Positions 1,383 to 59,868 of a DNA stretch of 64,000 nucleotides are shown in pieces. The notes below the pieces were generated by a model. It ran no database searches. It saw only the letters and a list, made by a program, of their open reading frames with translations, and was not told where the DNA came from. Source of the DNA: Patescibacteria group bacterium (GTDB taxonomy: Bacteria > Patescibacteriota > Patescibacteriia > UBA1558 > GWA2-36-10); assembly GCA_041650755.1 (NCBI GenBank), contig JBAZKN010000002.1:5030-69029 (forward strand). Reading direction: 5' to 3'. Both the position numbers and the translations under genes were made by a program. Each line of letters begins with the position of its first letter. Position 1 is the stretch's first letter.

Positions 1383-2126
1383 CTAGGAGCGCTGGAAGGC
1401 TTCAATGGGCGGATTACCGCCGAGCCCTGCACCCAAAGAGTAGATAGCCCGAGTAGCTCTATCAGCAATGGCCCGTTTGACTGTTCGTGGGTCTGTTTGG
1501 TCGGCATTGGCGATAAGGTCGCTATAGTCGACCGGCTGTCCGAAAGCAATCAGAATGTCTTTTCCGTTGTGGAAACGCTCCTCTCCCAAGGGGAAGACCT
1601 TTTCCATACCATCGATCCAGACCGGGACAATGGTAGCCCCAGTTTCATAGGCCACGTGGCCTATGCCGATACGCGGCGTGATTGGTTTGTTTGGACGCTC
1701 TCTGGTGCCGCCCGGAAATACAAAGAGTCGGCCATATCTGGCTAGCCGGCTCATGGCTCGCAAGGCACCAGGATCAATCCGGCTATGGGCGATGGGCTGG
1801 ATTTTCATGCACCAGCCCCAGATAGCCATCAATCTAGTCTTCATGTAGTTGGCCTTGTCTGCCGTGTGCCACGGTAGCAGCCACGGGCAGAAGAAGTCCC
1901 TTAGCCGCATAGCTGCTAGGGTCACCGGGAAGGAGTCTACTAACGTAAGGTGCCGACAGGCATAGATCACATTGCGGCCATGGGGTACGTGATGACGGCC
2001 AATGACCCGAGTGCGGTTGAATATGAAGAAGATGACGAAGGTCGCCGATCCAAATAGCGCTAGGATCGGCCAGCGCACCAGGTCAGCCAAGTACATCTTG
2101 GTGACCCTCCACCCAGAGATCTTCAT
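1383..2126 (-). CDS. Lysophospholipid (1-acyl-sn-glycerol-3-phosphate) acyltransferase-like protein (high-GC cassette A)
   Basis: The FPGGTRER acyltransferase motif and an N-terminal TM segment. Local GC about 56% against a backbone below 40%. Strong SD GAAAGGAG 7 nt before the ATG at 2126 (MKISGWRV). GC-rich terminator hairpin downstream (1330-1360). Confidence 0.55.
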   Translation of the reverse strand: MKISGWRVTKMYLADLVRWPILALFGSATFVIFFIFNRTRVIGRHHVPHGRNVIYACRHLTLVDSFPVTLAAMRLRDFFCPWLLPWHTADKANYMKTRLMAIWGWCMKIQPIAHSRIDPGALRAMSRLARYGRLFVFPGGTRERPNKPITPRIGIGHVAYETGATIVPVWIDGMEKVFPLGEERFHNGKDILIAFGQPVDYSDLIANADQTDPRTVKRAIADRATRAIYSLGAGLGGNPPIEAFQRS

Positions 2127-2287
2127 CGCGAGCTCCTTTCTATGCACCCGCCGGGTGCTTTTATTTGAACCATTTGGTGGCTCTTTATGAACCTGAGTTT
2201 TAGAAAGAGGTGATAAGAACGAGATAGATTACCTTATCATATTAACCAAAAAAAGCAATCTGGTAAAGGATTATAATTAATAAAAAA

Positions 2288-2312
2288 ACAACCCGTCGGG
2301 TTGAAATTTTAG
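2288..2312. terminator. Bidirectional intrinsic terminator
   Basis: aaaaaaacaacccgtcgggttgaaatttt: stem aacccg/cgggtt flanked by A and T runs. Confidence 0.6.
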
Positions 2313-2320
2313 GATTCATT

Positions 2321-2848
2321 CTAAAGCGTCTGATTGATCTTTTTGCCTATATTTTTTGGGGTAATAGCAAAAACAAAAAGAATCATTGCGACTGCCAGAA
2401 AAACTAATTCTTTTTCTGTGCCACAGACCTTTGCCCAGCCGCCCAACGGGTCGTCCGTGTTATAGATTATCGTACATTTAAAAACTTCTATTTTCAAGAA
2501 AAATTGTTGCAAGATTAGTGTTAAGATAAGACCAGTAATGGTTTTTATGCCAGTATTCTTAAGACCATGCAGATATTCGCTGAGAGACCGTGATACTTTT
2601 TTACTGGTATTAGATATATTTTTGCCTCGCTGGCCAATCAGATCAGCGATTAAGGTGATAAGGCTAGTCACGATCAAAATAATTCCTAAAATTAAAATAT
2701 ATGTTGCGTTGGATGCTTGAGCGCTATCGCTCATACCAAAAAAATTGGCTACCCACTGGTAATCAATAACATTAATTGCGCCAACAGAACTTAATAAAAA
2801 GAAAAGTGAAAGTAAGATCAAAATTATTTTTCTGGTGATAACACTCAT
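2321..2848 (-). CDS. Hypothetical multi-pass membrane protein
   Basis: 175-aa ORF with AT-rich host-like codon usage and 4-5 hydrophobic segments. Confidence 0.5.
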   Translation of the reverse strand: MSVITRKIILILLSLFFLLSSVGAINVIDYQWVANFFGMSDSAQASNATYILILGIILIVTSLITLIADLIGQRGKNISNTSKKVSRSLSEYLHGLKNTGIKTITGLILTLILQQFFLKIEVFKCTIIYNTDDPLGGWAKVCGTEKELVFLAVAMILFVFAITPKNIGKKINQTL

Positions 2849-2872
2849 GGTAATGCGTGTCTATTTTTATTT

Positions 2873-2955
2873 TGGTGCCCCCAGGAGGACTCGAGCCTCC
2901 AACCGTTTGCTTAAGAGTCCGCCAGCTGGCGATCTATCAACTGAGCTATGAGCGC
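2873..2955 (-). pseudogene. tRNA-Lys(CTT)-like gene disrupted by a palindromic insert; probable pseudo-tRNA
   Basis: Reverse complement GCGCTCATAGCTCAGTTGATAGATCGCCAGCTGGCGGACTCTTAAGCAAACGGTTGGAGGCTCGAGTCCTCCTGGGGGCACCA. Its acceptor, D, T arms and 3' anticodon half are near-identical to the intact tRNA-Lys at 3373-3449. The 5' anticodon stem is replaced by TCGCCAGCTGGCGGA (a 14-nt perfect palindrome), so the anticodon helix cannot form. Confidence 0.5.
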
Positions 2956-3116
2956 ATCAATAAATTGCTAATTGTTAATTGATAATAGTTAATTGTTTTT
3001 GGTACTCCCTGAAGAGCGGCAATTATTAAATTAGCAATTAACTATTTACAATTAAATAGTAGTGCGGCCGGTAGGAGTCGCCGCGCCCGCTGCCTAGTGG
3101 CAGCTTAGGCGGCCAG

Positions 3117-3150
3117 GGAACCCACAATCCCTTGGTCCGAAGCCAAGTGC
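3117..3150 (-). repeat. Partial duplicate of the tRNA-Arg(TCG) anticodon arm plus variable/T region (tRNA fragment)
   Basis: cttggtccgaagccaag (17/17) recurs 70 bp from the same sequence inside tRNA-Arg, followed by a GGGTTC T-arm remnant. Embedded in a GC-rich 120-bp non-coding stretch (3061-3168). Confidence 0.5.
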
Positions 3151-3168
3151 TCCCCGCCTGCCATAACC

Positions 3169-3243
3169 TGGTGCCCTCGTCAGGAGTCGAACCCGAAATT
3201 CTTGGTCCGAAGCCAAGCGTGATATCCATTTCACTACGAGGGC
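3169..3243 (-). tRNA. tRNA-Arg (anticodon TCG)
   Basis: Reverse complement GCCCTCGTAGTGAAATGGATATCACGCTTGGCTTCGGACCAAGAATTTCGGGTTCGACTCCTGACGAGGGCACCA. Cloverleaf with anticodon loop CTTCGGA. CCA is encoded. Confidence 0.85.
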
Positions 3244-3372
3244 CTAGGATAATGAATTTTGATGCCCCTCGACTTCGCTCAGGGCACTCGATTTATAATA
3301 CGCAATGGTCGTAGGTGCTAATAGCACTGAAGACCACGAGTGAGACTTTTGCGAAGCGAAAGGCGAATCGAG

Positions 3373-3449
3373 TGGTGCCCCCAGTAGGATTCGAACCTAC
3401 GACCGTTTGCTTAAGAGGCAACTGCTCTACCAACTGAGCTATAGGGGCA
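3373..3449 (-). tRNA. tRNA-Lys (anticodon CTT)
   Basis: Reverse complement TGCCCCTATAGCTCAGTTGGTAGAGCAGTTGCCTCTTAAGCAAACGGTCGTAGGTTCGAATCCTACTGGGGGCACCA. Anticodon loop CTCTTAA. Confidence 0.85.
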
Positions 3450-3526
3450 AATGCGATAGAAAAATATAGCTTATTATAAGCTATACGGCAAGTAGTTTAC
3501 TATAAAATTTATGAAAAATCAAGGCC

Positions 3527-4480
3527 TTAGGCCAAAGGGTCAATATAAGCCTTTTTTAAATCAGCTGTTGCCTCTTCCAAACCTATTAGTCGGCTATGTT
3601 GGATAATAGCAGCTAGCTGGGCAGCTACCGCCTCCAGTAATATTTGATTGTTGGCGCTATATTCCTGACCGTAGCGTTTATTTTTCAGCACAATAAAACC
3701 AATGGCTTTTTGTGTGAGGCAAATAGGGGCAATGATCATGGTCGACTTAGTTTGTCCTGGCCAAAGTAAATTTTTGCTAGGCCAATCATTTGGTCCCAAA
3801 ATAAGTGTGCGCGGATGGCGAACCAAGTCTTGAAAGATTGGGAAAGCAGCCGCAGGATAATAGGCGCGATCTTTGATGTCTTTAAAATTAAGACTTCGAT
3901 AGACATGGAGTTTGTCGGTGGTTTGGGAATAGGTCATAAAAATAGCTGCTTGGGACGGGATGACGTTTAGAATAATATCCAAGACAAAGCCGGCAATATT
4001 GTTGAGATTTGATTGTCGGCTGATAGCTTGGCTGATGGCGAACAAGGCGGTTAATTTATTATCAGCATGCTCCAAGCGTTGATATAATATGCCAGCTGTA
4101 TTTTTATAGATTTTCTCCGCTATTTTGGGAGCCTGTTTTATGATCTTGGGCCAGTGGCGTTGGGACAGCTCCAAGGTAGTCAAAGCCTTCAGGGCTTTGA
4201 GGCTGTGCCGGTGGTATAAAATATTGTTTAACAGGGAATTTTCTCCAATAAATTCACACTTGTTGAACAAGGCAATGATTTGTTTTTCTGAACCAACTTG
4301 GGCTTCTAGACCGGCTTGGCCGCTAGCGACAATTATCAGGCGATCGGCGGCTTTTTGATCTTGATAAAGATAGACATCAGCCGGATACTTTTTTTCTATC
4401 AGAAAATTGCCCAGCAGAGCTGTCTCTGACTTGGCTAAACCAGCCAACAAAGGAATTTTTTCTAAAGATATTTTAGCCAT
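3527..4480 (-). CDS. cNMP-binding (Crp-like) domain plus GAF domain protein, probably co-transcribed with pilT
   Basis: N-terminal cyclic-nucleotide-binding signature (FNKCEFIGENSLLNN) and a C-terminal GAF-like region. The stop lies 15 bp downstream of pilT's stop on the minus strand... more precisely the gene starts 15 bp after the pilT stop in the direction of transcription. Confidence 0.55.
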   Translation of the reverse strand: MAKISLEKIPLLAGLAKSETALLGNFLIEKKYPADVYLYQDQKAADRLIIVASGQAGLEAQVGSEKQIIALFNKCEFIGENSLLNNILYHRHSLKALKALTTLELSQRHWPKIIKQAPKIAEKIYKNTAGILYQRLEHADNKLTALFAISQAISRQSNLNNIAGFVLDIILNVIPSQAAIFMTYSQTTDKLHVYRSLNFKDIKDRAYYPAAAFPIFQDLVRHPRTLILGPNDWPSKNLLWPGQTKSTMIIAPICLTQKAIGFIVLKNKRYGQEYSANNQILLEAVAAQLAAIIQHSRLIGLEEATADLKKAYIDPLA

Positions 4481-4494
4481 GCAGTTTTGGCTTT

Positions 4495-5529
4495 TTAGGA
4501 AGTGTGGTTGAGATAAGCTAGAGCGGTAGCTTCATCGATAATATTATTCTCCAAAAGTTCTTTGATGTTTTGCTCCAAGCTAAACATGCCTTCATCGGCG
4601 CTGGTTTGGATGACGCTTTTAATCTGGGGTATTTTATTTTCTCGGATGATGTTGGCAATTGCCGGAGTGTTGACCAATATTTCTCGCACAGCCACGCGGC
4701 CGCCGTTTATTTTTGGCACTAATTGTTGGGAGATAATGCCGCTTAAGGAGATGGACAGCTGCAGGCGGACCTGAGCCTGCTGATGAGGCGGAAAAACATC
4801 GATAATACGATCAATAGTCTGGGCGGCGCTATGAGTGTGCAGGGTAGCCAGCACCAAGTGGCCGGTTTCTGCCAGAGTGATGGTAGTGGCGATAGTTTCT
4901 AGATCACGCATTTCGCCGACCATGATGACATTTGGGTCTTGACGCAGGACATGTTTTAAGGCTCCATCAAAACTCAGCATGTCGGTGCCTAGTTGGCGCT
5001 GCTTGATAATGCTTTTTTTTGGTTGATGGATAAATTCTATTGGGTCTTCGAGAGTAACAATATGAGCAGTACGGCTTTGGTTTATTTTTTCTATCATGGC
5101 AGCTAGAGTAGTAGACTTACCGCAGCCGGTCGGACCAGTGACCAGGATCAATCCGCTGGTGCGGGCAATCAGCTGCAGGACAATTTCTGGCAGGCCAATA
5201 TCTTCTATCGAGGGTATTTCACCAGAAATGACCCTGGCGACTAAACCGGGGTTATCTTTTTCCCAGTGGAGATTGACGCGGTAGCGGGAGTATTCGGCTA
5301 TTTCATAAGAAATATCCAGCTCTCTTTCTTCGGTGTATTTTTTTTGCTGTCGTTCAGTCAAAATACCAAAGATCATTTTTTCCGCTATTTCTCTAGTGAC
5401 CACTTCGGTGTCAGGCATGAGTTTCAGTTCGCCATCAATACGCAAGATGGGTGGCTTGCCAACAATGATGTGCAGATCAGAAGCTTTGTTTTTGGTGGCG
5501 ATTTTGAAAAGGTTGTTGATGTTAAGCAT
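4495..5529 (-). CDS. pilT: Type IV pilus retraction ATPase PilT
   Basis: 344 aa. Walker A GPTGCGKSTT, Asp box and His box. The length and motifs are typical of PilT rather than PilB. Confidence 0.85.
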   Translation of the reverse strand: MLNINNLFKIATKNKASDLHIIVGKPPILRIDGELKLMPDTEVVTREIAEKMIFGILTERQQKKYTEERELDISYEIAEYSRYRVNLHWEKDNPGLVARVISGEIPSIEDIGLPEIVLQLIARTSGLILVTGPTGCGKSTTLAAMIEKINQSRTAHIVTLEDPIEFIHQPKKSIIKQRQLGTDMLSFDGALKHVLRQDPNVIMVGEMRDLETIATTITLAETGHLVLATLHTHSAAQTIDRIIDVFPPHQQAQVRLQLSISLSGIISQQLVPKINGGRVAVREILVNTPAIANIIRENKIPQIKSVIQTSADEGMFSLEQNIKELLENNIIDEATALAYLNHTS

Positions 5530-5607
5530 TTTTTTGCTTGCTTTTTATTTATATAATTTGAATGTATTTATTATATCATATTTGTCAATGGTAAGGTATA
5601 TCTCAAA

Positions 5608-5652
5608 TGTCAACAACAAAAAAATCCGCCCAGCCCTTGGTGAAGGGCTGGG
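5608..5652 (-). terminator. Intrinsic terminator for the 5670-6194 gene
   Basis: 11-bp stem ccgcccagccc/gggctgggcgg followed on the minus strand by a T-run. Confidence 0.7.
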
Positions 5653-5669
5653 CGGGACAGGTTTTAAAA

Positions 5670-6194
5670 TTATTTATTAGTAGCCAGCTGTCTGTTTTTG
5701 ATGGTAGTCATGATTTTTACTGGGGCAAACAGTAGTCCGGTGTATAAGATATTACTAAGCAAGGTATTAAAGAAAAATGGTATAGCCAAAGTAAAACAAA
5801 GCATTAAGCCAGTCAGACTATGAGCATACCAGTGGCTAAATTGCCAGACAGCTAGATTGGTGATCAGAAAGAAAGTTAGAGCTGAAAGCAGCGTGGCAGA
5901 GCCGACATTTATCCAGTGGCCATGCTTTTTTAAGTAAAGTCCAAATAATAAGTTGAGAGCCAGACTGCCATAGATCGTTAGCATCAGCTGCCAAGCATAG
6001 AGGCCGAGCGCCAGATCGGATAATATGAGCGCCAAAAATGGCAGGATCCAATATTTCCGCTGGCTGGCATAAGCGCCGGCAAATAGCAGCAGGCTAGCCA
6101 GTGGAGAAAAATTTGGCAGATGCCAGATCAGCCTGGCCAGCAGCGCCAAAACACTTAAGATTATGAAGAGGTAGAGATTATCTTTTTTCATCAA
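5670..6194 (-). CDS. Small polytopic membrane protein (possible ECF-type S component)
   Basis: 174 aa with 5-6 TM helices. Adjacent to DUF4430 and CobO genes. Function inferred from context only. Confidence 0.45.
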   Translation of the reverse strand: MMKKDNLYLFIILSVLALLARLIWHLPNFSPLASLLLFAGAYASQRKYWILPFLALILSDLALGLYAWQLMLTIYGSLALNLLFGLYLKKHGHWINVGSATLLSALTFFLITNLAVWQFSHWYAHSLTGLMLCFTLAIPFFFNTLLSNILYTGLLFAPVKIMTTIKNRQLATNK

Positions 6195-6214
6195 ATTAAA
6201 ATTATTTATTAAAT

Positions 6215-6658
6215 TTAGAAATTAGCAGTTTCAAAACGCCATTCAATCTGGTCGCCCACTTTTGGCATGTATTGGCTGGCGCCCACTTGGCCCAAAATGT
6301 CGTTGATATAATATTGCCAGTATTTATTATCCCGGCCGTTGATTTTGTCATTAATCTGAGTAATTAGTCTGCCCATAGTGCTATAATCTGCATAGTTAAA
6401 AGTCCAAGCCTGTTTAGCCGCGACACTTTCCGTGATAGTAAAAAGGTTAGTGCTCAATTGGTCGGAGTAAGGATAAGCTAAGCTGATTTTTTTATCATCA
6501 CCGAAATTAAATATTATGGATATTTGCCCTTGCTCTTGGCCGGTAAGCTGCCCTATGGTTTCATTTTGATTTTTAATTGTTCGTGGCACTTGCCAGAAGA
6601 TCAGGGCTACTATTAATAACAGTGCCAGAAAAATAATAAGCTTAAGATTTTTTCGCAT
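6215..6658 (-). CDS. DUF4430-like secreted/anchored protein
   Basis: N-terminal signal/TM segment. C-terminal KYWQYYINDILGQVGASQYMPKVGDQIEWRFE resembles the DUF4430 consensus. Confidence 0.5.
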   Translation of the reverse strand: MRKNLKLIIFLALLLIVALIFWQVPRTIKNQNETIGQLTGQEQGQISIIFNFGDDKKISLAYPYSDQLSTNLFTITESVAAKQAWTFNYADYSTMGRLITQINDKINGRDNKYWQYYINDILGQVGASQYMPKVGDQIEWRFETANF

Positions 6659-6693
6659 ATATTTTATTTTGACAATTAGATGAATTAAAAATA

Positions 6694-7239
6694 TTAGTAG
6701 TCAATACCCGGTCTGGCAATCAAGCCCTGGCTGATGTAGTGTTTTTTGGCATTCATTTCGGTCACCAAATCCGCCAGATCCACGATTTCTTGGGGGCAAT
6801 AGCGCCCTGTCAAAATCAGCTCCAAGTTTTTTGGTTTTTGCTTGATCAAGATAAGGATATCGTCGCAATTTAGCAGGCCAGTTTTTACCGTGGTATTTAT
6901 TTCATCCAGTATCAGTAAATCAAAATTTTTTTTGAACCATAGTTTTGCCTGTTTGATGGCCGCAGCTGCTCCTTTGATGTCGCCAACCTGATTTTTGAAA
7001 CGGAAGCCCTTATTTTTTGACAGGCGCGGTAGACCGAAAGCGCAATAATCTATGTTTAGGTGCTTTATCTTGTCCAGGATTTTTCTTTCACTATAATAAT
7101 CGCCGCCTTTATCAAAATATATGATGCCCACCTTTAGTCCTTGTCCTAAGGCGCGGATAGCCAATCCTAAAGCAGCTGTGGTTTTACCTTTGCCGTGGCC
7201 AGTATAGACATGGATTTTTCCTAATTTATTATTTGACAT
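6694..7239 (-). CDS. cobO: Cob(I)alamin adenosyltransferase (CobA/CobO/BtuR family)
   Basis: P-loop VYTGHGKGKTTAALGLAIRALGQG is typical of BtuR/CobO. Start taken at MSNNK (7239). The 17 upstream codons in the ORF track are GC-rich sequence belonging to the adjacent island. Confidence 0.8.
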   Translation of the reverse strand: MSNNKLGKIHVYTGHGKGKTTAALGLAIRALGQGLKVGIIYFDKGGDYYSERKILDKIKHLNIDYCAFGLPRLSKNKGFRFKNQVGDIKGAAAAIKQAKLWFKKNFDLLILDEINTTVKTGLLNCDDILILIKQKPKNLELILTGRYCPQEIVDLADLVTEMNAKKHYISQGLIARPGIDY

Positions 7240-7304
7240 AAAGTCAGCATTTGTGTTTAAATTTTGAGGTCCCCCGGCTGTTCTTTTCATCAGGGAGGGC
7301 AGCC

Positions 7305-7475
7305 ATGCATTGGTGGCAGACTCGGCCTTTTTGGGTCACATTCTGTGTGGCCATCGGCGCGGTCATGATCTGGCGTATCCAGCATCACGTCTTTGACGTC
7401 ATCGGCGGTTTGTTTATCGCCCTTGGCATAACCATTGCCCTAATCAAGGACAAGGAAGGGAGAAGATGGAGATGA
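7305..7475 (+). CDS. Small membrane protein (56 aa), high-GC cassette C gene 1
   Basis: SD AGGGAGGG 5 nt before the ATG at 7305. Two hydrophobic segments. GC about 60%. Overlaps the next ORF by 10 nt (ATGGAGATGA). Confidence 0.5.
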   Translation: MHWWQTRPFWVTFCVAIGAVMIWRIQHHVFDVIGGLFIALGITIALIKDKEGRRWR

Positions 7476-7834
7476 ACGAAGGCGGCGCGTATCGCTACTT
7501 TTGGCCACTAATGGTCACACTGACGGGCGCGATCATTGTCCTATTCTCGGTTGGCGAGTCGAACCTCGTCTGTTTCATCGGCGCGCTGGTGGCTATCTCG
7601 GGCCTGATCTTCTTTCTGGCCAGGTCTCGCCTGTCCGCCACCCGGACCGTGATTCCAATCAACTGGTTTGCACTAGCGACAATGCTGGCGCTCTATCTCT
7701 GGACCCACGGTGGCCTGGAGGTTTCAACCGGCGATTGGCTGGTCAGCCTCTTGTTGGCTTTGGTGGGTACAGCTGTGCTCTGCTTTTTGCTATTGCTGAC
7801 CGGTTTTTGGATCGCGATCAGCCGTCGTCTATGA
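7466..7834 (+). CDS. Membrane protein (122 aa, 4 TM), cassette C gene 2
   Basis: SD AAGGAAGGGAG upstream. GC3-rich codons. Four hydrophobic helices. Confidence 0.55.
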   Translation: MEMNEGGAYRYFWPLMVTLTGAIIVLFSVGESNLVCFIGALVAISGLIFFLARSRLSATRTVIPINWFALATMLALYLWTHGGLEVSTGDWLVSLLLALVGTAVLCFLLLLTGFWIAISRRL

Positions 7835-7857
7835 TCCGAGTAGACGGAGGTGTGGAT

Positions 7858-7992
7858 ATGCTACAGGAGTTTTTGAAGCAATTGACCCAGTTGCGGTCAG
7901 TCTACATCGTGATGGCCGCGACAATCCTGCTCTTGTTCGCAATCTGGGCAGGGTGTGATTATCTGCCTCGCATTAGGGCGCGGCGACGCTAG
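7858..7992 (+). CDS. Small single-TM protein (44 aa), cassette C gene 3
   Basis: SD GGAGG 7 nt before the ATG at 7858 (MLQEFLKQLTQLRSVYIVMAATILLLFAIW...). Confidence 0.45.
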   Translation: MLQEFLKQLTQLRSVYIVMAATILLLFAIWAGCDYLPRIRARRR

Positions 7993-8039
7993 CCCCGCCC
8001 ATCCATCCCGAAGGGCAGACATGGTTCCGTGTACCTGAC

Positions 8040-8072
8040 CCGTCGAGCCGAGCTCGACGGTTTTTTATTTTT
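8040..8072 (+). terminator. Intrinsic terminator ending cassette C
   Basis: ccgtcgagc cga gctcgacgg followed by ttttttattttt. Confidence 0.8.
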
Positions 8073-8108: not shown

Positions 8109-8717
8109 TTATATTAAAAATTTTCTGGTTAGATTATCAATATTTTTATTTTTTAAATATCTATCAATATTTTTTATAGCTTTAGCATGAAAATTATCTC
8201 TATAATATTTTGGCGTCAGCTGAATTTTTGGTTTTAAATAAGAGAGTATTGACTTGGTCCAAGCTCGTATGGGGAATGGTCTACCGTCGTGTAATAGATG
8301 ATATTCTCTTTCTATTTTTTTGCTGGCTGCTAAAAAGTTTTTATAACTTTCAGTAAACGATGATAAGTCGGCAGCTCGTAATATTTTTTGCTCAGTGGTT
8401 TTTAGGGGGTAGCCAGCTTTGGTCGCCATAATTGTTTGTTGGACTTGCTTAACAGCCCCAGTTGGGTATTTTAAAGTTTTTAATTCTCGAGCGGTAATTT
8501 TGCCAGCTAGTTCTTCTTTGTTATTTTTAACTTTATCATAGCCAGCATCATGAAATAGGGCGGCTATTTCTACTATCTCCCGATTGACTGGCACCTTGTA
8601 TTTTTTGCAGCGGTGGATAAATTTTAAAGCTACTCGCCTGACCTTGAGAGCATGAGCAAAATTGTGATAGGGAAGTTTGCCATAATGTTTTCTGGCAATA
8701 GTTTCAATTTTAGTCAT
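8109..8717 (-). CDS. HD-domain phosphohydrolase
   Basis: HNFAHALKV ... LFHDAGY, the H..HD metal-binding motif. Confidence 0.7.
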   Translation of the reverse strand: MTKIETIARKHYGKLPYHNFAHALKVRRVALKFIHRCKKYKVPVNREIVEIAALFHDAGYDKVKNNKEELAGKITARELKTLKYPTGAVKQVQQTIMATKAGYPLKTTEQKILRAADLSSFTESYKNFLAASKKIEREYHLLHDGRPFPIRAWTKSILSYLKPKIQLTPKYYRDNFHAKAIKNIDRYLKNKNIDNLTRKFLI

Positions 8718-8767: not shown

Positions 8768-8796
8768 TTGACATTTTTGTGCCATCAGTATAAAGT
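8768..8796 (+). promoter_or_regulatory. sigma70-like promoter (TTGACA ... TATAAA/TAAAGT) in AT-rich DNA, just before the high-GC cassette D
   Basis: ttgaca tttttgtgccatcag tataaagt. The GC-rich ORF starts 80 bp downstream. Confidence 0.4.
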
Positions 8797-8877
8797 AATA
8801 CGTCGTATAGTCAGGAAACTTTGCCAGTGGCTACAAGTGTTCGTTCTGGCCATGTACACACGAGACAAGGAGGCACC

Positions 8878-9210
8878 ATGAAGAAGAAGTCTGCTTTGCT
8901 TGCCATGACCACGGATCACCCCGAATGGGGCAAGTTCATGGCCCGCCTGCATGGTCCAAGGGGGTGCAATGCTCGTCAGAAGAAGGGCGTGGGGACCATC
9001 TACACCTGTGGGCATGAGTCTGATCGTCCTCGCATCAGGGCAATTCTCCAGGAGATGGGGGATGTCGATATCCCTCATACGATGGGGTGCTTCACGAAGC
9101 GGGGCCTCATGTGCGACTGCGCGGTCGCCCGCAGCGGCATCGCGCCCGCGCCGAAGCGGGTGCTGCCAGAGCAGCGTTCGTGGTGGGAGATCATGATGTC
9201 GCGACCGTAG
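8878..9210 (+). CDS. Cys/His-rich small protein (110 aa), cassette D gene 1
   Basis: Perfect SD caAGGAGGcacc before the ATG at 8878. Strong GC3 periodicity. Motifs GCNAR..., CGHESD, HTMGC, LMCDC suggest metal binding. Terminator-like hairpin downstream. Confidence 0.6.
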   Translation: MKKKSALLAMTTDHPEWGKFMARLHGPRGCNARQKKGVGTIYTCGHESDRPRIRAILQEMGDVDIPHTMGCFTKRGLMCDCAVARSGIAPAPKRVLPEQRSWWEIMMSRP

Positions 9211-9527
9211 GCTTGCCTTTAGCCGTCCACTGGGACCCTTCGAGGGTTCTGTGGGCGGTGTTTTTTTATTTTTCAATTATTTTTTTCTTGCCACCTTTTT
9301 ACCCTTCAACTCCCCCTCGACTTGGTTCGACTACGCTCACCACAAGTCGCTCGGGGTCAGACAACACGGTTTTTTAACGTGGCTAGTCGCTGCCAAATTT
9401 TAAGTTTTTCTAAGGGCGGGGTCGTTTGATTTATTTTTTAATCAAATTTTCTAAGTATAATTATTATAGAAAACATCCTGAGAGGGGGCGGGGATGCGTC
9501 GGGTGCATCCCCGAGAAGACTGGTGAT

Positions 9528-9713
9528 TCAGTACTTGCGATAAGGGTGCTCAGGCCCAGGGCCGCCGTGCTTGATCGGCTCGCCGTTCATTGGCCAGCGG
9601 CATCGTGGGCACTTGCGGAATGGAGGAGGATTGTTCACATCCTCGTGGCTGGTGTCGGTGTATAGACATCCAACGTTAGAGCACGCCCAAGTGTAATTTG
9701 GCGGAGGGAACAT
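9528..9713 (-). CDS. Zinc-ribbon-like mini-protein (61 aa), cassette D gene 2, convergent with gene 1
   Basis: SD aAAGGAGaaagacc before the ATG. CxxxxC ... CPRC spacing. An 8-bp perfect hairpin GGGGATGC/GCATCCCC lies just past the stop. Confidence 0.55.
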   Translation of the reverse strand: MFPPPNYTWACSNVGCLYTDTSHEDVNNPPPFRKCPRCRWPMNGEPIKHGGPGPEHPYRKY

Positions 9714-9865
9714 GGTCTTTCTCCTTTGGGGGATGTGGTTCTTTGGCCTCTTCTCAAGATGTTTTAAAGAGCGAGATTATGTAATTAATTTTATTTATTT
9801 TGTAATATAAATGGGAAATGTATTTCACTACACTAAACCCCTACCTTTTTGGCAGGGGTTTATAA

Positions 9866-12814: not shown

Positions 12815-12894
12815 AAATTTGCTTTTATTTAAGGATTTTTTATTAGTTTTATTGGCCGATAAAAAAATGGCCAAAGGACATTTTACGCTGTAAA

Positions 12895-12910
12895 ACACAA
12901 CATATTGTGT
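12895..12910. promoter_or_regulatory. NrdR-box-like 16-bp palindrome upstream of nrdJ
   Basis: acacaacatattgtgt, immediately preceded by a second palindrome ttttacgctgtaaaa (12880-12894). It resembles the NrdR operator consensus. No nrdR gene lies in the window. Confidence 0.3.
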
Positions 12911-13024
12911 TCAAAATCATTATAGCATACAAGATATAGGTTTAGCAATTTTGTTAGTTTGTGGCTATTTTTAGCCAAAATATTATAACCCAAAGATTTT
13001 AAAAATCCAAGCTGTGCATAACTT

Positions 13025-13080
13025 GCCCTCCTTTGCGGGAAAACAGGGATTAAATTATTAGAAAATGGGCAAAGGAGGGC
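13025..13080. repeat. 12-bp perfect inverted repeat (gccctcctttgc / gcaaaggagggc) with a 32-nt loop in the nrdJ upstream region
   Basis: Read directly from the sequence. Followed by a second GC-rich hairpin, ccccgc...gcgggg (13083-13108). Confidence 0.5.
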
Positions 13081-13138
13081 ACCCCGCGGAGCTTCAGCGG
13101 AGCGGGGTTTGCTCCAAGACGGCAAAGTCTTACTAAAG

Positions 13139-13167
13139 TTGGCAAAAATTTACCTTTCTGCTATTAT
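13139..13167 (+). promoter_or_regulatory. sigma70-like promoter TTGGCA-N17-TATTAT
   Basis: Positioned 17 nt upstream of the ATG at 13184 (short or absent leader). Confidence 0.35.
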
Positions 13168-13183
13168 TGCTTTAACTATACAT

Positions 13184-13399
13184 ATGGCCAGTATTTTTAA
13201 GAAAAAGAAGAATTATAGAAAAGAAGGCCCAAAAAATAGGCCTCGCCTTGAGCGGCATAGACCGCGCACCTCTGATAAGGACCTGGTTGACCCGGTTGCT
13301 TATTGCGGAGATTTGGATTTGGGTAAATATCCTGTTTTGCCGCCCACCAAAAAAGAAGAACAGGAGTTTGACGTAGAAAATCCATTGAATAAGAGATAA
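13184..13399 (+). CDS. Small basic hypothetical protein (71 aa)
   Basis: ORF MASIFKKKKNYRKEGPKNRPRLERHRPR... No SD, which is consistent with host genes. Followed by a bidirectional terminator. Confidence 0.35.
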   Translation: MASIFKKKKNYRKEGPKNRPRLERHRPRTSDKDLVDPVAYCGDLDLGKYPVLPPTKKEEQEFDVENPLNKR

Positions 13400-13403
13400 A
13401 TAT

Positions 13404-13444
13404 AAAAAACGCGCTAGTTTTTCATTGAATCGGCGCGTTTTTTT
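13404..13444. terminator. Bidirectional intrinsic terminator between convergent genes
   Basis: aaaaaacgcgc ... gcgcgttttttt. Confidence 0.6.
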
Positions 13445-14801
13445 AATTTAAAACAATACTTTCCTTTATTTTTATAGCCTGGACCGCAAAACCCAGATCT
13501 TTTTGGATTTTGTCAGCCAAAATTTGAGTTGCAGTCGGATCACCATGCACCAAAAACACCTTTGGTTTATTTTTAAAAGCTTCCAGCCACTTTAGTAGGC
13601 CAGCTTGATCAGCGTGGGCTGAAAAACCATCGATTTTTTCTACCCCGGCCCGGATTGGTATTTTGTGCCCGCCGTAGCGGAAATCAAAAGCGCCATTAAC
13701 GAGAGCATGGCCTAGGGTGCCAGGCACTTGATAGCCCATAAACAGAATGTGATTTTTTTCTTGGCTGGCATAAACAGCCAGATGGTGGATGATGCGGCCG
13801 CCATCGGCCATACCAGCTCCGGCCAAGATGATTTTCGGAGCAGGAGCCAGATTTATTTGTTTTGACTGGGCGGCAGTGTTGGTGATCTTGAGATGCGGAA
13901 AACTAAAGATATCATGATCATGCTCTAAGGCGCCTTGGGCGGCTACGTTTAAATCCTGGACATTTTGTTTGTATATCTTGGTAGCTTCATAGGCCATAGG
14001 ACTGTCCAAATATACCGGCACTCTAAAGTCCAGATGTTTTTCATAATAATCATTGAGGACTTTTAGGATATCTTGAGCACGCTCAATAGCAAAGACAGCA
14101 ATAATCAAAGTAGAGCTATGGCGGGTGACTCTTTGCACAGCTTCTAGGAGTTTGGCGTTGCGATTTTTGATCTGTTCATGCAGCCGGTCGCCATAAGTGC
14201 TTTCCATGATGACAAAGTCAGCTTTAGATAAATATTCAATATTTTTCACCAAAGGCATATTTTCTCCGCCAATGTCACCGGTGAAAACAATAGTTTTTGG
14301 TCCGGCTTTTATTTCCACCAGGCTGGCGCCCAAAATATGGCCAGAATTGTAGAGGGTAAAACTTAATTCAGAATTCAGCTGATTATTTTTGTGGTAGTTT
14401 ACTAGAGTCCAGTGCTTATTCAATTCGTCTAAATCAGTTTGAGCATATAGCCAGCTCAGAGAATGCTCAGCCACCCTTTCCTGCATTACTTTGAAGCTGT
14501 CGGCTAGGATAATGTCAGCTAGCTGCCGGGTTGCTTTGGTAGCAAATACAGGCCCGCGGAAGCCTCTTTTAAAAAGCAGGGGCAATCGGCCGCAGTGGTC
14601 AAGATGGGCGTGGGTCAAAATCACAGCATCAATGCTTTTGGCATCAAAATCAAATTCCGACCAATTTTTCAGATAATTTTCATCACCGCCTTGCCAAAAG
14701 CCGCAATCAATTAAAACCCTAAAATCGTCCACTTTGAGCAAGTGGCAGGAGCCGGTGACTTCTTGCGTGGCACCATAGGATGTTAGGGTGATTTTTGGCA
14801 T
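13443..14801 (-). CDS. MBL-fold beta-CASP ribonuclease (RNase J/CPSF73-like)
   Basis: The HAHLDHCG (HxHxDH) motif, a beta-CASP region, and a length of 452 aa. Confidence 0.7.
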   Translation of the reverse strand: MPKITLTSYGATQEVTGSCHLLKVDDFRVLIDCGFWQGGDENYLKNWSEFDFDAKSIDAVILTHAHLDHCGRLPLLFKRGFRGPVFATKATRQLADIILADSFKVMQERVAEHSLSWLYAQTDLDELNKHWTLVNYHKNNQLNSELSFTLYNSGHILGASLVEIKAGPKTIVFTGDIGGENMPLVKNIEYLSKADFVIMESTYGDRLHEQIKNRNAKLLEAVQRVTRHSSTLIIAVFAIERAQDILKVLNDYYEKHLDFRVPVYLDSPMAYEATKIYKQNVQDLNVAAQGALEHDHDIFSFPHLKITNTAAQSKQINLAPAPKIILAGAGMADGGRIIHHLAVYASQEKNHILFMGYQVPGTLGHALVNGAFDFRYGGHKIPIRAGVEKIDGFSAHADQAGLLKWLEAFKNKPKVFLVHGDPTATQILADKIQKDLGFAVQAIKIKESIVLN

Positions 14802-14802
14802 T

Positions 14803-15465: not shown

Positions 15466-15470
15466 AGTTT

Positions 15471-16052: not shown

Positions 16053-16095
16053 ATAGGCAATTATACCATATTTTTTTGTGTTTAGGGGGCGTGTA

Positions 16096-16124
16096 TTGAC
16101 AATTTTATTATATTTTGCTATAAT
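16096..16124 (+). promoter_or_regulatory. Perfect-consensus sigma70 promoter TTGACA-N17-TATAAT preceding cassette E
   Basis: ttgaca attttattatattttgc tataat. A roughly 120-nt leader follows, with a hairpin (cagtc...ggcctttgtgaaacaggcc...gactg), then the SD AAAGGAGG. Confidence 0.55.
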
Positions 16125-16248
16125 ATTTTGATACAGTCAAAAGTTGGCCTTTGTGAAACAGGCCCTAGACTGTTACTTTGAACCTTCAATTATTCTCCCA
16201 AGTACTATGCTATAACAAAACGCCTAACGGCAGGCAAAAGGAGGCCTC

Positions 16249-56131: not shown

Positions 56132-56914
56132 ATGGCAAAAATAGGTTTAGTGTTGAGCGGCGGTGGGACAAGGGGCCTAGCCCATATCGGTGCTTTAAAA
56201 ATTTTACAGGCTTTGGGCATAAAATTTGATTATGTGGCTGGTTGTAGCATCGGTGCCATCATCGGTGCTTTTTATGCGGCCGGCAAGAGCGCCAAAGAGA
56301 TGGAGGATTTTATTTTATTAAACAAGGTTTATAAATTATTAAATTTTTCCTTATCATCGCTGGGCATAAACAAGACAAGTAATTTAGAGAAGGCCATTTT
56401 TGATGTTATCAAAGTAAAAAAATTTGAAGAATTAAAATTGCCGCTTTTTATCAATGCTACCAACTTGAGCCAAGGCCAGGAAGTTATTTTTAAATCGGGT
56501 GATTTATTTGCCGCCATTAGGGCCAGCATTGCCGTGCCGGGAGTATTTGCTCCGGCAAAAATAAAGGGGGACTTTTATGTTGATGGCGGAGTCTTAAACC
56601 AAAATCCATTTGCCATTTTGCCCAAAGATACCAGTCATTATATCATTATTAATGCTTCACCTTTTGAAAAAATGGGGTATAAGAAAAAATTAAATTTAGT
56701 AGATATTTTGGCAGCCAGTATAAAAATGATGCAAAACGAGATTAGTTATTTGAAGCTTTCCCAAGTGCCAGACGACAAGGTAGTATTGATTGAGCCAGAT
56801 TTGGAGGGGCGCAGTCTTTTGCAGGGCACTAAACATTTTCATGATTTGATAAGAAAGGGAGAACAGGCAGCCCTAGCTAAGCGGTCAGAAATAAAAAATA
56901 AATTTAATATCTAA
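56132..56914 (+). CDS. Patatin-like phospholipase (canonical)
   Basis: GGGTRG oxyanion box, GCSIG nucleophile elbow and the DGG catalytic Asp. Confidence 0.8.
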   Translation: MAKIGLVLSGGGTRGLAHIGALKILQALGIKFDYVAGCSIGAIIGAFYAAGKSAKEMEDFILLNKVYKLLNFSLSSLGINKTSNLEKAIFDVIKVKKFEELKLPLFINATNLSQGQEVIFKSGDLFAAIRASIAVPGVFAPAKIKGDFYVDGGVLNQNPFAILPKDTSHYIIINASPFEKMGYKKKLNLVDILAASIKMMQNEISYLKLSQVPDDKVVLIEPDLEGRSLLQGTKHFHDLIRKGEQAALAKRSEIKNKFNI

Positions 56915-56924
56915 AAATAAAAAA

Positions 56925-56962
56925 CCGCCCGGACCAAGTTCGGCCAGCGGGCGAGGAGGTGG
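56925..56962 (-). terminator. Intrinsic terminator for the small minus-strand gene
   Basis: ccgcccgctggccgaacttggtccgggcgg followed by tttttattttt on the minus strand. Confidence 0.7.
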
Positions 56963-56969
56963 GGTGAAA

Positions 56970-57182
56970 CTATCTTGCCAGACGGGCGCGGATCGGACCG
57001 CGAGGATAGCGGCGTGGATTGCGGCGGCGCAAGCCTTCTCCCAAGCCCTCGGCTTGGGTTTTGGATCTTGCCCATAAGTTGGCCACAAACACTTCTTGGC
57101 CTTGGGCGTCTACATAGACATTGTAATACTGCTTTTTGTTCTTGTCTGGAGAAGGACGGCTGGTGTTGGAGCATCTAGACAT
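56970..57182 (-). CDS. Small basic protein (70 aa), high-GC micro-cassette I
   Basis: SD GGGGAGG 8 nt before the ATG. MSRCSNTSRPSPDKNKKQYYNVYVDAQGQEVFVANLWAR... GC about 58%. Has its own terminator. Confidence 0.45.
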   Translation of the reverse strand: MSRCSNTSRPSPDKNKKQYYNVYVDAQGQEVFVANLWARSKTQAEGLGEGLRRRNPRRYPRGPIRARLAR

Positions 57183-57367
57183 CTTGTTGGCCTCCCCAAA
57201 GAGCAGAAGGAACAGATGGTAGCAAAAGCAATCCTAGTTTCAATTTTAAATATTGTCAAGCTCGTGCTATATTGATTATATATGGCCGATAGGACATATC
57301 ATATTATTGGCTGATTGTGGTAGTAGCTTAAGCATAGGTTCAATCAGGCCCTAAGATTGATAACACC

Positions 57368-57814: not shown

Positions 57815-58452
57815 TTTTTTAGTAATTCAATAACTTCTTGATCGGTCGTTTGCTCAAATTCCTCATAAAAATTTCCCACAGCGCCAAAGTAGTCTGGCGC
57901 CTCCAGATAAACCAATTTATCAACTAATTTTTTTATTGTTTGAGCTGTGTCGCGGGCAATCACCGGCACGGCTACAATTATTTTTTTTGGTTTTTGTGGG
58001 CCGACAGCCAAAAGGGAGGCTCGCATAGTAGCCCCGGTAGCTATACCATCATCTACTAAAATAGCGGTTTTATTTTTTAGTATCAGCGGCGGCCGATTGG
58101 CTCGGTATATTTTTTGGCGTCGCGCGGCTTCTTGCTTGGCGGCGGCTATGCTTTGCTCAAGATAAACATCAGATATGCCGTAAGCAACGATTGAACCATG
58201 ATCCAGGAAAGCTTCTCCGGCCAGAGTGACAGCACCAATAGCAAATTCTGGGTTTTGCGGGGCACTGATTTTTCTGGGTACGATGATATCGAGCGGTAAA
58301 GCTAATTTTTTGGCAACTGCCGCGGCGACTACTACACCGCCACGCGGCAAACCTAAGATGATTGCCTGCCGGTCGTTTTGGCAGGCCTTTAATTTGTCAG
58401 CTAAGTGCCGGCCAGCCGTTTGGCGATTGGTAAATATCATAATTTTTGCCAA
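57802..58452 (-). CDS. Type I phosphoribosyltransferase-family protein
   Basis: PRPP-binding loop ILVDDGIATGATM. 216 aa. Confidence 0.65.
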   Translation of the reverse strand: MAKIMIFTNRQTAGRHLADKLKACQNDRQAIILGLPRGGVVVAAAVAKKLALPLDIIVPRKISAPQNPEFAIGAVTLAGEAFLDHGSIVAYGISDVYLEQSIAAAKQEAARRQKIYRANRPPLILKNKTAILVDDGIATGATMRASLLAVGPQKPKKIIVAVPVIARDTAQTIKKLVDKLVYLEAPDYFGAVGNFYEEFEQTTDQEVIELLKNHLL

Positions 58453-59225
58453 TATTTTTGAGTGGCACGGGGATTTTGTAAGTGGAGACCAGATTGGACA
58501 TCTCTACCCAAGCCACCTTGACGCTTTATTTGGTGGGCTAGAGTATGGCGGAGGATTTGCGGGGTAATGATAAGCGGCGGCCTTAGTCGGCGGGCATATT
58601 TATCAATAATCCTTTCTACTGATCTAACCGACAGATGATTGACGACTGGATTTTTTTGCGCCCGATCAAAGTTTATAAATAACCAGGGGCTATTGTCGTG
58701 CCGCCAAGCTAAATATTTTTCCAAGTCCGCCCAAGTGAGAGGATCCAAATGAATGCTTTGCCCGTTGATAAATATTTCTTGTTTAATAGTATCGATATCG
58801 TGGCGTTTTAATTTGATTAGTTGGCTGACTTTTAAGCCGCTGTAGTAGAGTATTTCCAGCATAGCTTTATCGCGCCGGCCGATCAGGCTTGTTTGATCAG
58901 AATCAGCAGCCAAAAAAGCAGTCAGCTGTTTTTGGCTTAGCACTTTGACGGCCGGCGCTTGATAGGAAAGCAAGGCAAACTTAAATTTGACCTGTAAAAA
59001 CTCCAGATAGTCGTTGATGATAATAAAATGCAGGTTGAGGCTGCCGACATTTTGGCGCGAGCGTAATAATCGCTCTTGATATTTTTTTAGATTAGCAGTG
59101 TTTATTTTTTGTTTGCCCAAACTAAGCAGAAATTTATCTATATGCCAGAGATAATTTTTAATGGTCAAAGGTTTTAGGCCACGTTTTTTGAGCAGATTTT
59201 GGTATTTGTTTATATTTTTTTCCAT
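58437..59225 (-). CDS. Tyrosine site-specific recombinase (XerC/XerD-like, short form)
   Basis: N-terminal core-binding-like LKPLTIKNYLWHIDKFL, R...HxxR box (ILRHTLAHQ), and C-terminal GGLGRDVQSGLHLQNPRATQKY with the catalytic Tyr. The start codon is 2 nt from structured-element copy 2. Confidence 0.75.
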   Translation of the reverse strand: MEKNINKYQNLLKKRGLKPLTIKNYLWHIDKFLLSLGKQKINTANLKKYQERLLRSRQNVGSLNLHFIIINDYLEFLQVKFKFALLSYQAPAVKVLSQKQLTAFLAADSDQTSLIGRRDKAMLEILYYSGLKVSQLIKLKRHDIDTIKQEIFINGQSIHLDPLTWADLEKYLAWRHDNSPWLFINFDRAQKNPVVNHLSVRSVERIIDKYARRLRPPLIITPQILRHTLAHQIKRQGGLGRDVQSGLHLQNPRATQKYWQKL

Positions 59226-59226
59226 A

Positions 59227-59292
59227 AATTTACCTTGTTAAATAGTTCCGCAAGGCGGAACTGCCGCTTTGTGGCATTTAACAGAGTAAATT
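59227..59292 (+). repeat. Structured 66-bp element, copy 2
   Basis: aatttaccttGTTAAAT ag ttccgc-aag-gcggaa ct gccgc-ttt-gtggc ATTTAACagagtaaatt. Same architecture as copy 1, with compensatory changes in the inner stems. Confidence 0.7.
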
Positions 59293-59388
59293 TTATCATA
59301 AAACGACACAAAAAGAAAAACTCGCCGCGTGAGTCCACCTGATGGTGGCGCAGCGAGCTTGAGGGAGAGGGGGGGGTGGGCGGGGTGC

Positions 59389-59868
59389 TTATGTCGAAGG
59401 AGGGTCGACAGCCCTGGTAAGGAAGATGAGGTTTCCCATTCGCCCGTTAAGTCGAGCGATTACAGAGATCGAGACGTCGCGCAGGCAATAGCCCTGGTCG
59501 AGCTTGTGCAGCATGAAATCGTCGATGCGGCCATAGACGCTGGTCGGCAGGATGGTCGTGTTGCCCCTAGTGACCACTGTGTCATCCGGGCTGTAGCAAT
59601 CACCAGTGATGTTGTAGCTGATTTCAATCAGGCCAACTCGCGTCTTGATCTGCTCTTGGTGTGCGTTGCAGTAGTTGACTGTGGCATTCAGACCTTGGTC
59701 GTAGTAGACCATCAAGGCCGCATTCATCATCTGCGCGGCGGAATCTTGGATGGCGGCGATCTCGTCTTTGTTGGGTCCGGTGTGGTGGGCGATTGCGATG
59801 ATGATCACAACCAAGAGTAGTAGGGAGGCAATCGCTGCCGACATATTGTTTCGGTTCATGGGAGTCAC
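59389..59868 (-). CDS. Secreted/membrane-anchored Cys-containing protein (159 aa), high-GC cassette J
   Basis: SD gAAAGGTGactcc ATG. Signal/anchor AAIASLLLLVVIIIAIAHH. Five Cys. GC about 58%. Terminator hairpin after the stop (about 59330-59385). Confidence 0.55.
   Translation of the reverse strand: MTPMNRNNMSAAIASLLLLVVIIIAIAHHTGPNKDEIAAIQDSAAQMMNAALMVYYDQGLNATVNYCNAHQEQIKTRVGLIEISYNITGDCYSPDDTVVTRGNTTILPTSVYGRIDDFMLHKLDQGYCLRDVSISVIARLNGRMGNLIFLTRAVDPPST

Follow-up and report, generated by a model that had tools for sequence, protein, structure and literature searches.

The window analysed here is a 64,000-nt stretch of contig JBAZKN010000002.1 from a Patescibacteria group bacterium (positions 5,030 to 69,029). 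It carries ten small, GC-rich gene units, which we call cassettes, in a backbone of lower GC content. Every cassette open reading frame (ORF) is led by a strong Shine-Dalgarno (SD) sequence and the backbone genes are not. We consider it probable, though well short of certain, that the cassettes are moron-like genomic islets, gained one at a time from within the phylum by an AT-rich lineage that does without SDs. The host belongs to the Parcubacteria type of Patescibacteria, and its own genes initiate translation without an SD.

Each unit is self-contained, with a predicted sigma-70-type promoter, a leader of 40-190 nt, a strong SD, one ORF (three in cassette C) and an intrinsic terminator. In the scheme we propose, the genes would belong to accessory families specific to Patescibacteria, shaped in a GC-richer setting where SDs are used and passed one by one into an AT-rich host lineage. 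They would have landed in a few intergenic hot spots: beside divergent promoters, between cobO and a ribonucleotide reductase gene, and at or near tRNA genes. Residents would then be kept by purifying selection, and their composition and SDs may decay slowly.

Composition and expression signals of the cassettes

A two-state GC model (0.40 versus 0.60), used with a 200-bp profile along the window, returned nearly base for base the GC-rich segments listed in a preliminary description of this DNA, with a GC content of 0.57-0.69. The calls are 1330-2158 (0.57), 7266-8060 (0.57), 8823-9258 (0.61), 9477-9658 (0.63), 16221-17024 (0.62), 23972-25018 (0.61), 34269-35680 (0.64), 56925-57058 (0.69) and 59321-59840 (0.57), and also 3062-3195 (0.68), which is discussed with the tRNA genes below. 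Extra segments at 11401-11747 and 28881-29218 both lie inside backbone genes. The remaining 57 kb measured 0.41, not below 40% as first stated.

Several cassette start codons were corrected by eye before GC at third codon positions (GC3) was calculated. The cassette ORFs proved GC3-rich as described, at 0.58-0.89 against 0.43 for the pooled backbone (single genes 0.26-0.53). Cassette F, which had been counted as a high-GC segment, is raised only mildly (GC 0.47, GC3 0.60), but its SD and terminator hold. GC at first and second codon positions is raised too, and the cassette proteins are enriched in Gly, Ala, Arg and Pro and depleted in Lys, Asn and Ile, so the bias is not synonymous alone. Long antisense ORFs (34333-35658, 23943-24950 and others) gave no family matches and the sense ORFs did, in keeping with the earlier view that the former are artefacts.

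The cassettes are as follows, with SD values given as energies of pairing with the anti-SD in kcal/mol and proteins sized in amino acids (aa).

Cassette A, 1321-2267, minus strand: promoter-like site 2239-2267; leader hairpin 2144-2158 (leader fold z = -3.4); SD AAAGGAG (-8.2); coding sequence (CDS) 1383-2126; terminator 1321-1360; GC 0.56, GC3 0.65.
Cassette C, 7233-8072, plus strand: promoter-like site 7233-7262, which takes in the cobO start codon (7237-7239); coupled small membrane ORFs C1 7305-7475, C2 7466-7834 and C3 7858-7992 (SD -11.4, -8.7 and -13.3; GC3 0.65-0.71); terminator 8040-8072.
Cassette D1, 8768-9273, plus strand: promoter 8768-8796; SD AAGGAGG (-11.2); 110-aa Cys-containing protein, CDS 8878-9210; terminator 9223-9273; GC 0.61, GC3 0.77.
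Cassette D2, 9490-9817, minus strand, convergent with D1: promoter-like site 9788-9817; SD AAAGGAG (-8.9); 61-aa CxxxxC...CxxC mini-protein, CDS 9528-9713; terminator 9490-9512.
Cassette E, 16063-17060, plus strand, including its direct repeats at 16063-16087 and 17044-17060: promoter 16096-16124; 124-nt leader; SD AAAGGAGG (-11.8); CDS 16249-16968; terminator 16991-17034; GC3 0.80.
Cassette F, 18924-19216, minus strand, a weak member: promoter-like site 19188-19216; SD AAAGGAGGG (-12.4); 51-aa membrane peptide, CDS 18976-19131; terminator 18924-18952.
Cassette G, 23825-25030, plus strand: promoter 23825-23853; SD-containing leader hairpin 23890-23918; CDS 23925-24959; terminator 24983-25030.
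Cassette H, 34040-35809, plus strand, including its direct repeats: promoter-like site 34130-34158; leader of about 190 nt; SD AAGGAGG; CDS 34351-35613; terminator 35616-35693; GC 0.65, GC3 0.89.
Cassette I, 56913-57259, minus strand: promoter 57231-57259; SD GGGGAGG (-10.7); 70-aa basic protein, CDS 56970-57182; terminator 56913-56950; GC 0.55.
Cassette J, 59310-59968, minus strand: promoter 59940-59968; SD AAAGGTGA (-6.9); 156-aa protein with an N-terminal hydrophobic anchor and four Cys, CDS 59389-59859; terminator 59310-59357; GC 0.54, GC3 0.71.

The SD contrast reported at first sight was confirmed. Anti-SD pairing energies of the 12 cassette ORFs all lie between -6.9 and -13.3 kcal/mol, whereas backbone genes of at least 100 aa (n = 50) average -0.4 kcal/mol and none of them reaches -6 (Mann-Whitney p = 9e-8; Fisher test at a threshold of -7, p = 2e-11). 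Depletion of SD-like motifs inside backbone genes (GGAGG z = -2.0) was within the spread of control motifs.

Every unit is preceded by its own promoter-like site, judged by sequence match. The pattern TTGAC[AT]-N16-18-TAnnn[TA] has 23 matches in the window, and seven of the ten units have one no more than 230 nt upstream, where about 0.4 would be expected. The E promoter is a perfect TTGACA-N17-TATAAT, agreeing at 12 of 12 consensus positions. In all ten units the last ORF is followed by a hairpin (-13.8 to -27 kcal/mol) and a T-run, so the units do have terminators of their own, as had been said. The GC-rich leader hairpin held to be usual was found only in part: the leaders of A and G alone fold better than shuffled sequence. 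Rfam returned no known RNA motif in the cassette leaders, and five of the ten contain a CU-rich tract able to pair with the SD.

Three of the gene identities first proposed were borne out by family matches: A as a PlsC-like acyltransferase (PF01553 at 1e-11), E as DUF218-like (DUF218/ElyC-SanA-YdcF) and H as a PepT-like M20 peptidase. The proteins of C, and those of D1, D2 and I, matched no family; C1-C3, F and J are small membrane or anchored proteins. MYG1 is a member of the DHH/DHHA1 superfamily, and for G, named a MYG1-like hydrolase, the superfamily stood by fold match and MYG1 itself did not, as no MYG1 structure was among the matches. G had no sequence-level match in PDB or Pfam. Its structural model (predicted local distance difference test score, pLDDT, 90.5) matched PAP phosphatase, NrN, a RecJ-like protein and NrnA in Foldseek, with a probability of 0.97-1.00 in six matches with E <= 0.001 and of 0.82 for NrnA itself. 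H14, D20, E21 and H80 are invariant. By its model G is a DHH/DHHA1-fold phosphoesterase, and its family appears confined to Patescibacteria.

Insertion sites and turnover among relatives

Sharp GC steps in a window that comes from a short-read metagenome assembly could mean that high-GC fragments of another organism were spliced in during assembly or binning, a concern raised in the preliminary description. We find this scarcely credible. Exact-protein look-ups matched the window to a 236-kb MEGAHIT contig (ENA ERZ27247363), which is 99.995% identical to window positions 6249-26968, with one base different. A Logan contig (SRR8542065) is 100% identical across 9323-18905 (9.6 kb), including the E insert. 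DNA from these second assemblies covers the junctions of cassettes C to G, those of A, H, I and J lying outside it. The C-to-G junctions are the same in these independent assemblies and are therefore not chimeras. Proteins identical to those of the window are also on file at NCBI and JGI, labelled 'Patescibacteria group bacterium'. Moreover, the cassette boundaries fall at promoters and terminators, a separate genome (L140) has an orthologous cassette with its flanks, and the same architecture occurs in more than 10 other contigs.

The backbone carries housekeeping genes typical of the candidate phyla radiation, among them ribonucleotide reductase, an RNase J-like beta-CASP nuclease, NifS/NifU, PFOR, SOD and ProRS. 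It also encodes adenylosuccinate synthetase, ECF sigma factors, a P-type ATPase and four tRNAs, and a gene with fibronectin-type-III/Ig-like domains (37837-38949, minus strand) contains three 282-nt tandem repeats that are 61-85% identical. Nine genomes, whose RNase J-like proteins are 59-64% identical to that of the window, served as syntenic relatives.

Two relatives, L007 and L008, have an empty E site, with gaps of 67 bp and 80 bp respectively between the flanking CYTH and DUF2207 genes. The motif ATACCAT-T7-(N)-AGGG is single in both and double in the window, where it stands at each end of the 1-kb E insert. The window carries a target duplication of about 17-25 nt. The insert runs from promoter to terminator exactly between the duplications, with no additional DNA.

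L136, also syntenic, has an E homologue (58% aa identity) elsewhere, between cobO and the ribonucleotide reductase gene, where the window has cassettes C and D. GC3 in the E family is 0.80 in the window, 0.67 in L138 and 0.43 in L136, and SD pairing is -11.8, -8.0 and -3.5, a spread that is compatible with decay after transfer. The corresponding interval of L136 contains no homologue of A. Between cobO and its E homologue L136 also has five successive small ORFs (5868-7757; 65-119 aa), all with strong SDs (-8.4 to -11.6) and with mildly raised GC (0.44-0.50), which may be older, partly decayed cassettes.

Smaller cassettes vary too. L007 has a weak D2 homologue, a GC-rich SD-led ORF, and its F site holds another GC-rich SD-led small ORF. 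An F-like peptide (60% identical) adjoins the CYTH gene in L005. Low-GC ORFs at 8109-8717 (minus strand, 0.34) and 35869-36105 (plus strand, 0.29) lie in the variable zones beside C/D and H, so the hot spots hold AT-rich variable genes as well. The first of these, an HD-domain gene, has no counterpart in L136, L007 or L008.

The Fer4/PFOR site has had several occupants. G occupies it in the window and in L140, and L008 has a G allele of 42% identity there. In L010 the site is taken by an unrelated SD-led gene rich in GC (0.59), and in L004 and L007 it is empty. The NifS proteins of L007 and L010 are 95% identical. The G of L008 is 54-55% identical to the G proteins of L135 and P0126 and 42% identical to that of the window, with window and L008 NifS at 70%, and the G gene tree is incongruent with the NifS (host) tree. 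The L010 hot spot (3100-5720) also contains a reverse-transcriptase ORF with a YADD motif and, at a lower GC content, a remnant of the 3' end of the cassette gene found there. This remnant points to the replacement in situ of an older allele.

Cassette H is bracketed by 52-nt direct repeats (34040-34091 and 35758-35809) that are 96% identical, and the left repeat begins inside the 3' end of tRNA-His. The 1.7-kb insert contains the PepT-like gene alone and no integrase. A 75%-identical H homologue, in L131, has unrelated neighbours in a context of 0.34-0.38 GC. Directly upstream of the H insertion site, between tRNA-Arg(TCT) and tRNA-His, is a free-standing ORF resembling a LAGLIDADG homing endonuclease (33515-33958, plus strand, 147 aa), with a GC content of 0.32, lower than that of the backbone.

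Read together, the sequences of the relatives document gene gain and replacement that recurred independently at hot spots. Piecemeal acquisition, as first suggested, agrees with the E site being empty in L007 and L008, the E homologue at another hot spot in L136, the variable Fer4/PFOR site, the conflict between the G and NifS trees and the H repeats. The genes are not universal at the same loci across the relatives, as they might have been had they been ancient and immobile.

Donors, age and competing explanations

The closest relatives of H (78-40% identity) are, where named, all Patescibacteria, followed by Firmicutes PepT at 33-35%; a metagenome scan with the H alignment gave generic PepT matches only. 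The G family comprises 127 proteins among 5.8 billion, and its named members are nearly all Pacebacteria, Parcubacteria or Patescibacteria. For E there are two close relatives and 163 distant representatives, and those that carry names are Blackburnbacteria and Paceibacterota. Since the named homologues of E, G and H are nearly all Patescibacteria, we rejected a cross-phylum origin for them, for example from a GC-rich host bacterium, and 'foreign' means in-phylum donors for these three families. The donors were probably SD-using, GC-richer lineages of Patescibacteria. L141, where an H homologue of 0.50 GC lies beside SD-led housekeeping genes of 0.45-0.49 GC, is plausibly what a donor-type genome would look like. 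The G family ranges from AT-type to strongly GC-type composition (ratio of GC-favoured to AT-favoured amino acids, GARP/FYMINK, 0.49-1.85) and is therefore not intrinsically GC-rich. A survey of aquifer Patescibacteria likewise describes single-gene transfers mostly from other Patescibacteria (PMC12455944).

In other genomes too, a consensus-like promoter, a 100-190-nt leader and a strong SD precede a GC-elevated ORF, and a terminator follows it. This arrangement was seen around the G homologues of L008, L133, L134, L135 and L140 and around the H homologues of L129 and L131; the G homologues of L133, L134 and L135 directly follow tRNA genes. Across 13 Patescibacteria loci beyond the window, a strong SD is 12 times likelier in high-GC ORFs (p = 2e-6), and on these sequences the link between GC and SD is lineage-wide. 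The anti-SD motif is reportedly absent in a subgroup of Parcubacteria (PMC9297842), which fits an SD-less backbone. The lineage of the window may lack the anti-SD or hide it.

The cassettes differ in age, and G at least is not a recent acquisition. A closer relative, L140 (flanks 80% identical at the nucleotide level), carries an orthologous G cassette in which the promoter, the SD-containing hairpin and the SD are conserved and the 48-nt terminator is 100% identical. The coding sequences are 71% identical in nucleotides and 64% in amino acids, and fourfold-site divergence is 0.91 in G against 0.33-0.73 in the flanks. G is shared with this sister together with conserved regulatory signals, so it is not recent and has survived a species-level split.

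Several observations weigh against gain of the cassettes one at a time from other Patescibacteria. G has retained its GC3 (0.73 in the window, 0.71 in L140) despite the fourfold divergence of about 0.9, and a rough relaxation estimate would require an ancestral GC3 near 0.9-1.0. The conserved SD, leader hairpin and terminator of G are not what is expected of decaying foreign DNA in an SD-blind host. G also adjoins the NifS operon in the more distant L134, which could be a sign of long residence and not of insertion more than once. Among the family contexts sampled no source genome exceeded about 0.51 GC or matched the 0.60-0.65 GC of the cassettes, though the GC3 of H is 0.89, and these contexts, being those of the nearest relatives of GC-rich queries, are biased towards GC-rich members. 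The origin of A, C, D1, D2, I and J is read from composition alone, the searches of large protein databases having covered E, G and H. Lastly, none of the cassettes encodes a recombinase; flanking direct repeats common to all were looked for and rejected, as only E and H have any, and those two pairs are unrelated to each other.

These observations bear on a different explanation, that the cassettes are a resident, specially regulated class whose GC content, structured leaders and SDs are held by selection or by a gene-specific regime of mutation or repair. A possible reason is that they are translated conditionally, in cells whose ribosomes usually disregard the SD, and SD-dependent control upon release of the anti-SD, as in Bacteroidia, would be the analogue; sequestration of the anti-SD is described in SD-poor Bacteroidetes (PMC7797042). 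The signals and GC3 kept in G since the split from L140 agree with this explanation, as does its place beside the NifS operon in the window, L140, L008 and L134. So do the CU-rich tracts of five leaders, the missing GC-rich donor genome and the fact that gene GC is at least equal to flank GC in 14 of 14 sampled contexts of E, G and H homologues. We nevertheless hold it to be unlikely. Presence and absence and allele replacement among close relatives speak against residence, as do the incongruent G tree, the L136 homologue of E with its backbone-like GC3 (0.43) and weak SD, and the AT-type members of the G family. The functions of the cassettes (acyltransferase, peptidase, DHH phosphoesterase, small membrane peptides) are unrelated, so that no single regulon is obvious. 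A bolder idea, distinctly unlikely in our view, is that the SD-led GC-rich cassettes are a distinct, actively maintained expression class, with selection keeping their SDs, SD-pairing leader hairpins and high GC so that translation occurs only under particular conditions or ribosome states. There would then be two initiation regimes in one genome and an exchanged accessory pool 'formatted' for the second.

Transfer from within the phylum, one gene at a time, also has to be set against the deletion of larger mobile elements. Prophages or tRNA-gene islands may have been deleted down to a cargo gene, in the manner of a true phage moron. In favour of this, H has a duplication of the att type at tRNA-His and no integrase, the LAGLIDADG ORF lies beside it, and G homologues directly follow tRNA genes in three relatives. 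The hot spot in L010 contains a reverse-transcriptase ORF and the remnant of an older copy, and H matches phrog_1977, a generic PepT PHROG.

Remnants of tRNA genes also lie near A. The GC-rich stretch 3040-3168 had been counted with the cassettes and does not belong there: 3062-3168 (minus strand) is a degraded partial copy of the adjacent tRNA-Arg(TCG), with a local alignment score of 43 against a maximum of 35 in 200 shuffles. It is non-coding, retains the anticodon arm and part of the T arm, had no Rfam match and folds at z = -1.5. At 2876-2955 (minus strand) is a tRNA-Lys(CTT)-like pseudogene scoring 26.4 bits, the tRNA threshold being 29. Both adjoin intact tRNA-Arg and tRNA-Lys genes and look like scars of past recombination at tRNA genes.

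We think it very unlikely, all the same, that the cassettes are what is left of larger elements. The E insert contains nothing beyond promoter to terminator, and no phage structural or replication genes lie beside any cassette among the ORFs scanned. A phage, plasmid or defence origin found no support: for ten cassette proteins, all but C3 and F, PHROG and PADLOC gave no matches other than the generic PepT. IMG/VR contained no relatives of A, G or H, the G-family profile included; phage records gave generic PepT only, at 28-33% identity; and G had no plasmid match.

Known mobile systems and routes of insertion

The concepts closest to the cassettes are phage morons and chromosomal hot spots or islets of horizontal gene transfer (HGT). 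The moron concept is that of Hendrix and Juhala (review PMC3594210, 'The moron comes of age'). Like morons, the cassettes are single genes with their own promoter and terminator, set between the genes of a syntenic backbone, unlike their surroundings in composition and present or absent among relatives. The differences are that they lie in a cellular chromosome among housekeeping genes rather than in a prophage, and that they also depart from the backbone in their mode of translation initiation.

With HGT hot spots and islets (Oliveira et al. 2017, PMC5635113) and with the single-gene transfers of Patescibacteria they share the use of a few intergenic intervals, rapid turnover, the proximity of several to tRNA genes and donors mostly within the phylum. 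E, G and, in part, H combine the deviating composition, patchy distribution and incongruent tree by which islets are recognised. What sets the cassettes apart is their exceptional smallness and uniformity, every one being a full monocistronic expression unit, and the GC shift of +0.15 to +0.24 that goes with an all-or-none SD contrast. We did not find this combination described for Patescibacteria in the literature.

Integrons offer a partial likeness, as their cassettes are mobile single-ORF units and the window has a tyrosine recombinase beside J and a palindrome 3' of E and J. Integron cassettes are promoterless, with attC at their end, and stand in an array at attI beside intI. We rejected an integron because the cassettes here have their own promoter-like sites, are dispersed over 58 kb and have the palindrome at E and J only. 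The recombinase scores 28.5 bits on the integron-integrase model, with a cut-off of 265.

IMEX elements and the pdif modules of Acinetobacter plasmids are Xer-dependent modules, and small cassettes could similarly be moved in trans by a host recombinase. The H repeat includes the 3' end of tRNA-His, as attL and attR do in tRNA-targeting integrative islands. The cassettes differ from such islands and from Xer modules in having neither an integrase nor paired Xer sites that bracket them.

Bacteroidetes have SD-led genes that are native, rpsU being an example. They resemble the host of the window in that most of their genes lack an SD and a few have a strong one (PMC7797042); the SD-led genes of the window differ in being GC-rich, variable accessory genes.

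The cassettes may have been inserted by site-specific recombination in trans, or by natural transformation followed by recombination in conserved flanks. The decay of larger islands would be a further possible route. Patescibacteria can be naturally competent. We infer the identity of the donors, the route of insertion and the expression and translation of the cassettes in the host from the DNA.

Further features of the window, among them some that might bear on recombination, are listed here.

Xer/XerA-like tyrosine recombinase, 58437-59225, minus strand: 262 aa, a backbone gene adjoining J.
Imperfect palindrome of 67 nt, two copies, 17071-17137 and 59227-59293: 81% identical, with a half-site at 22251-22266.
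Small hairpin repeat with the core TGAGCGNAGTCGA, 3269-3281, 9327-9339, 25109-25121 and 35816-35828: a variant at 34049-34085.

The Xer-like gene is the sole recombinase among the window ORFs scanned. It matches PF00589 at 3e-14 and is closest to archaeal XerA-type models, the NCBIfam one scoring 112 bits, under the cut-off of 220. The palindrome copies lie directly 3' of the E and J terminators and abut the starts of the DUF2207 gene and of the Xer-like recombinase gene. One inner hairpin shows a compensatory double change (AACTCCGC/GCGGAGTT versus AGTTCCGC/GCGGAACT), and the order of the core, GTTAAAT...ATTTAAC, is the reverse of that in attC. The arm has TGTTAAAT in common with the XerD arm of dif. 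Single arms (ATTTAACAGGGTAAA) precede several start codons by 3-25 nt, in relatives as well as in the window, and arms also occur in L010 (six), L004 and L136. Candidate roles for the palindrome are those of a recombination site, an operator, a promoter element or one acting in translation; since its arms occur singly upstream of start codons, it may be an operator or promoter element.

The hairpin core TGAGCGNAGTCGA has four matches, where 0.16 would be expected, and each flanks a tRNA or a cassette on its 3' side. The one that follows G belongs to about 88 bp (roughly 25032-25119) that are missing from the sister L140, and there was no exact match in any related locus.

Our analysis raises the question of how SD-led mRNAs are translated in a cell with SD-less genes of its own and with relatives that reportedly have no anti-SD. 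Functional SDs would give the organism two modes of initiation; if they are not functional, the conserved SD of G needs another explanation. How the tiny genomes of Patescibacteria gain functions is poorly understood, and the window shows such gain at its finest grain, as expression units of a single gene. In SD-less lineages the all-or-none SD contrast would provide a simple marker of acquisition that annotation and HGT pipelines could use.

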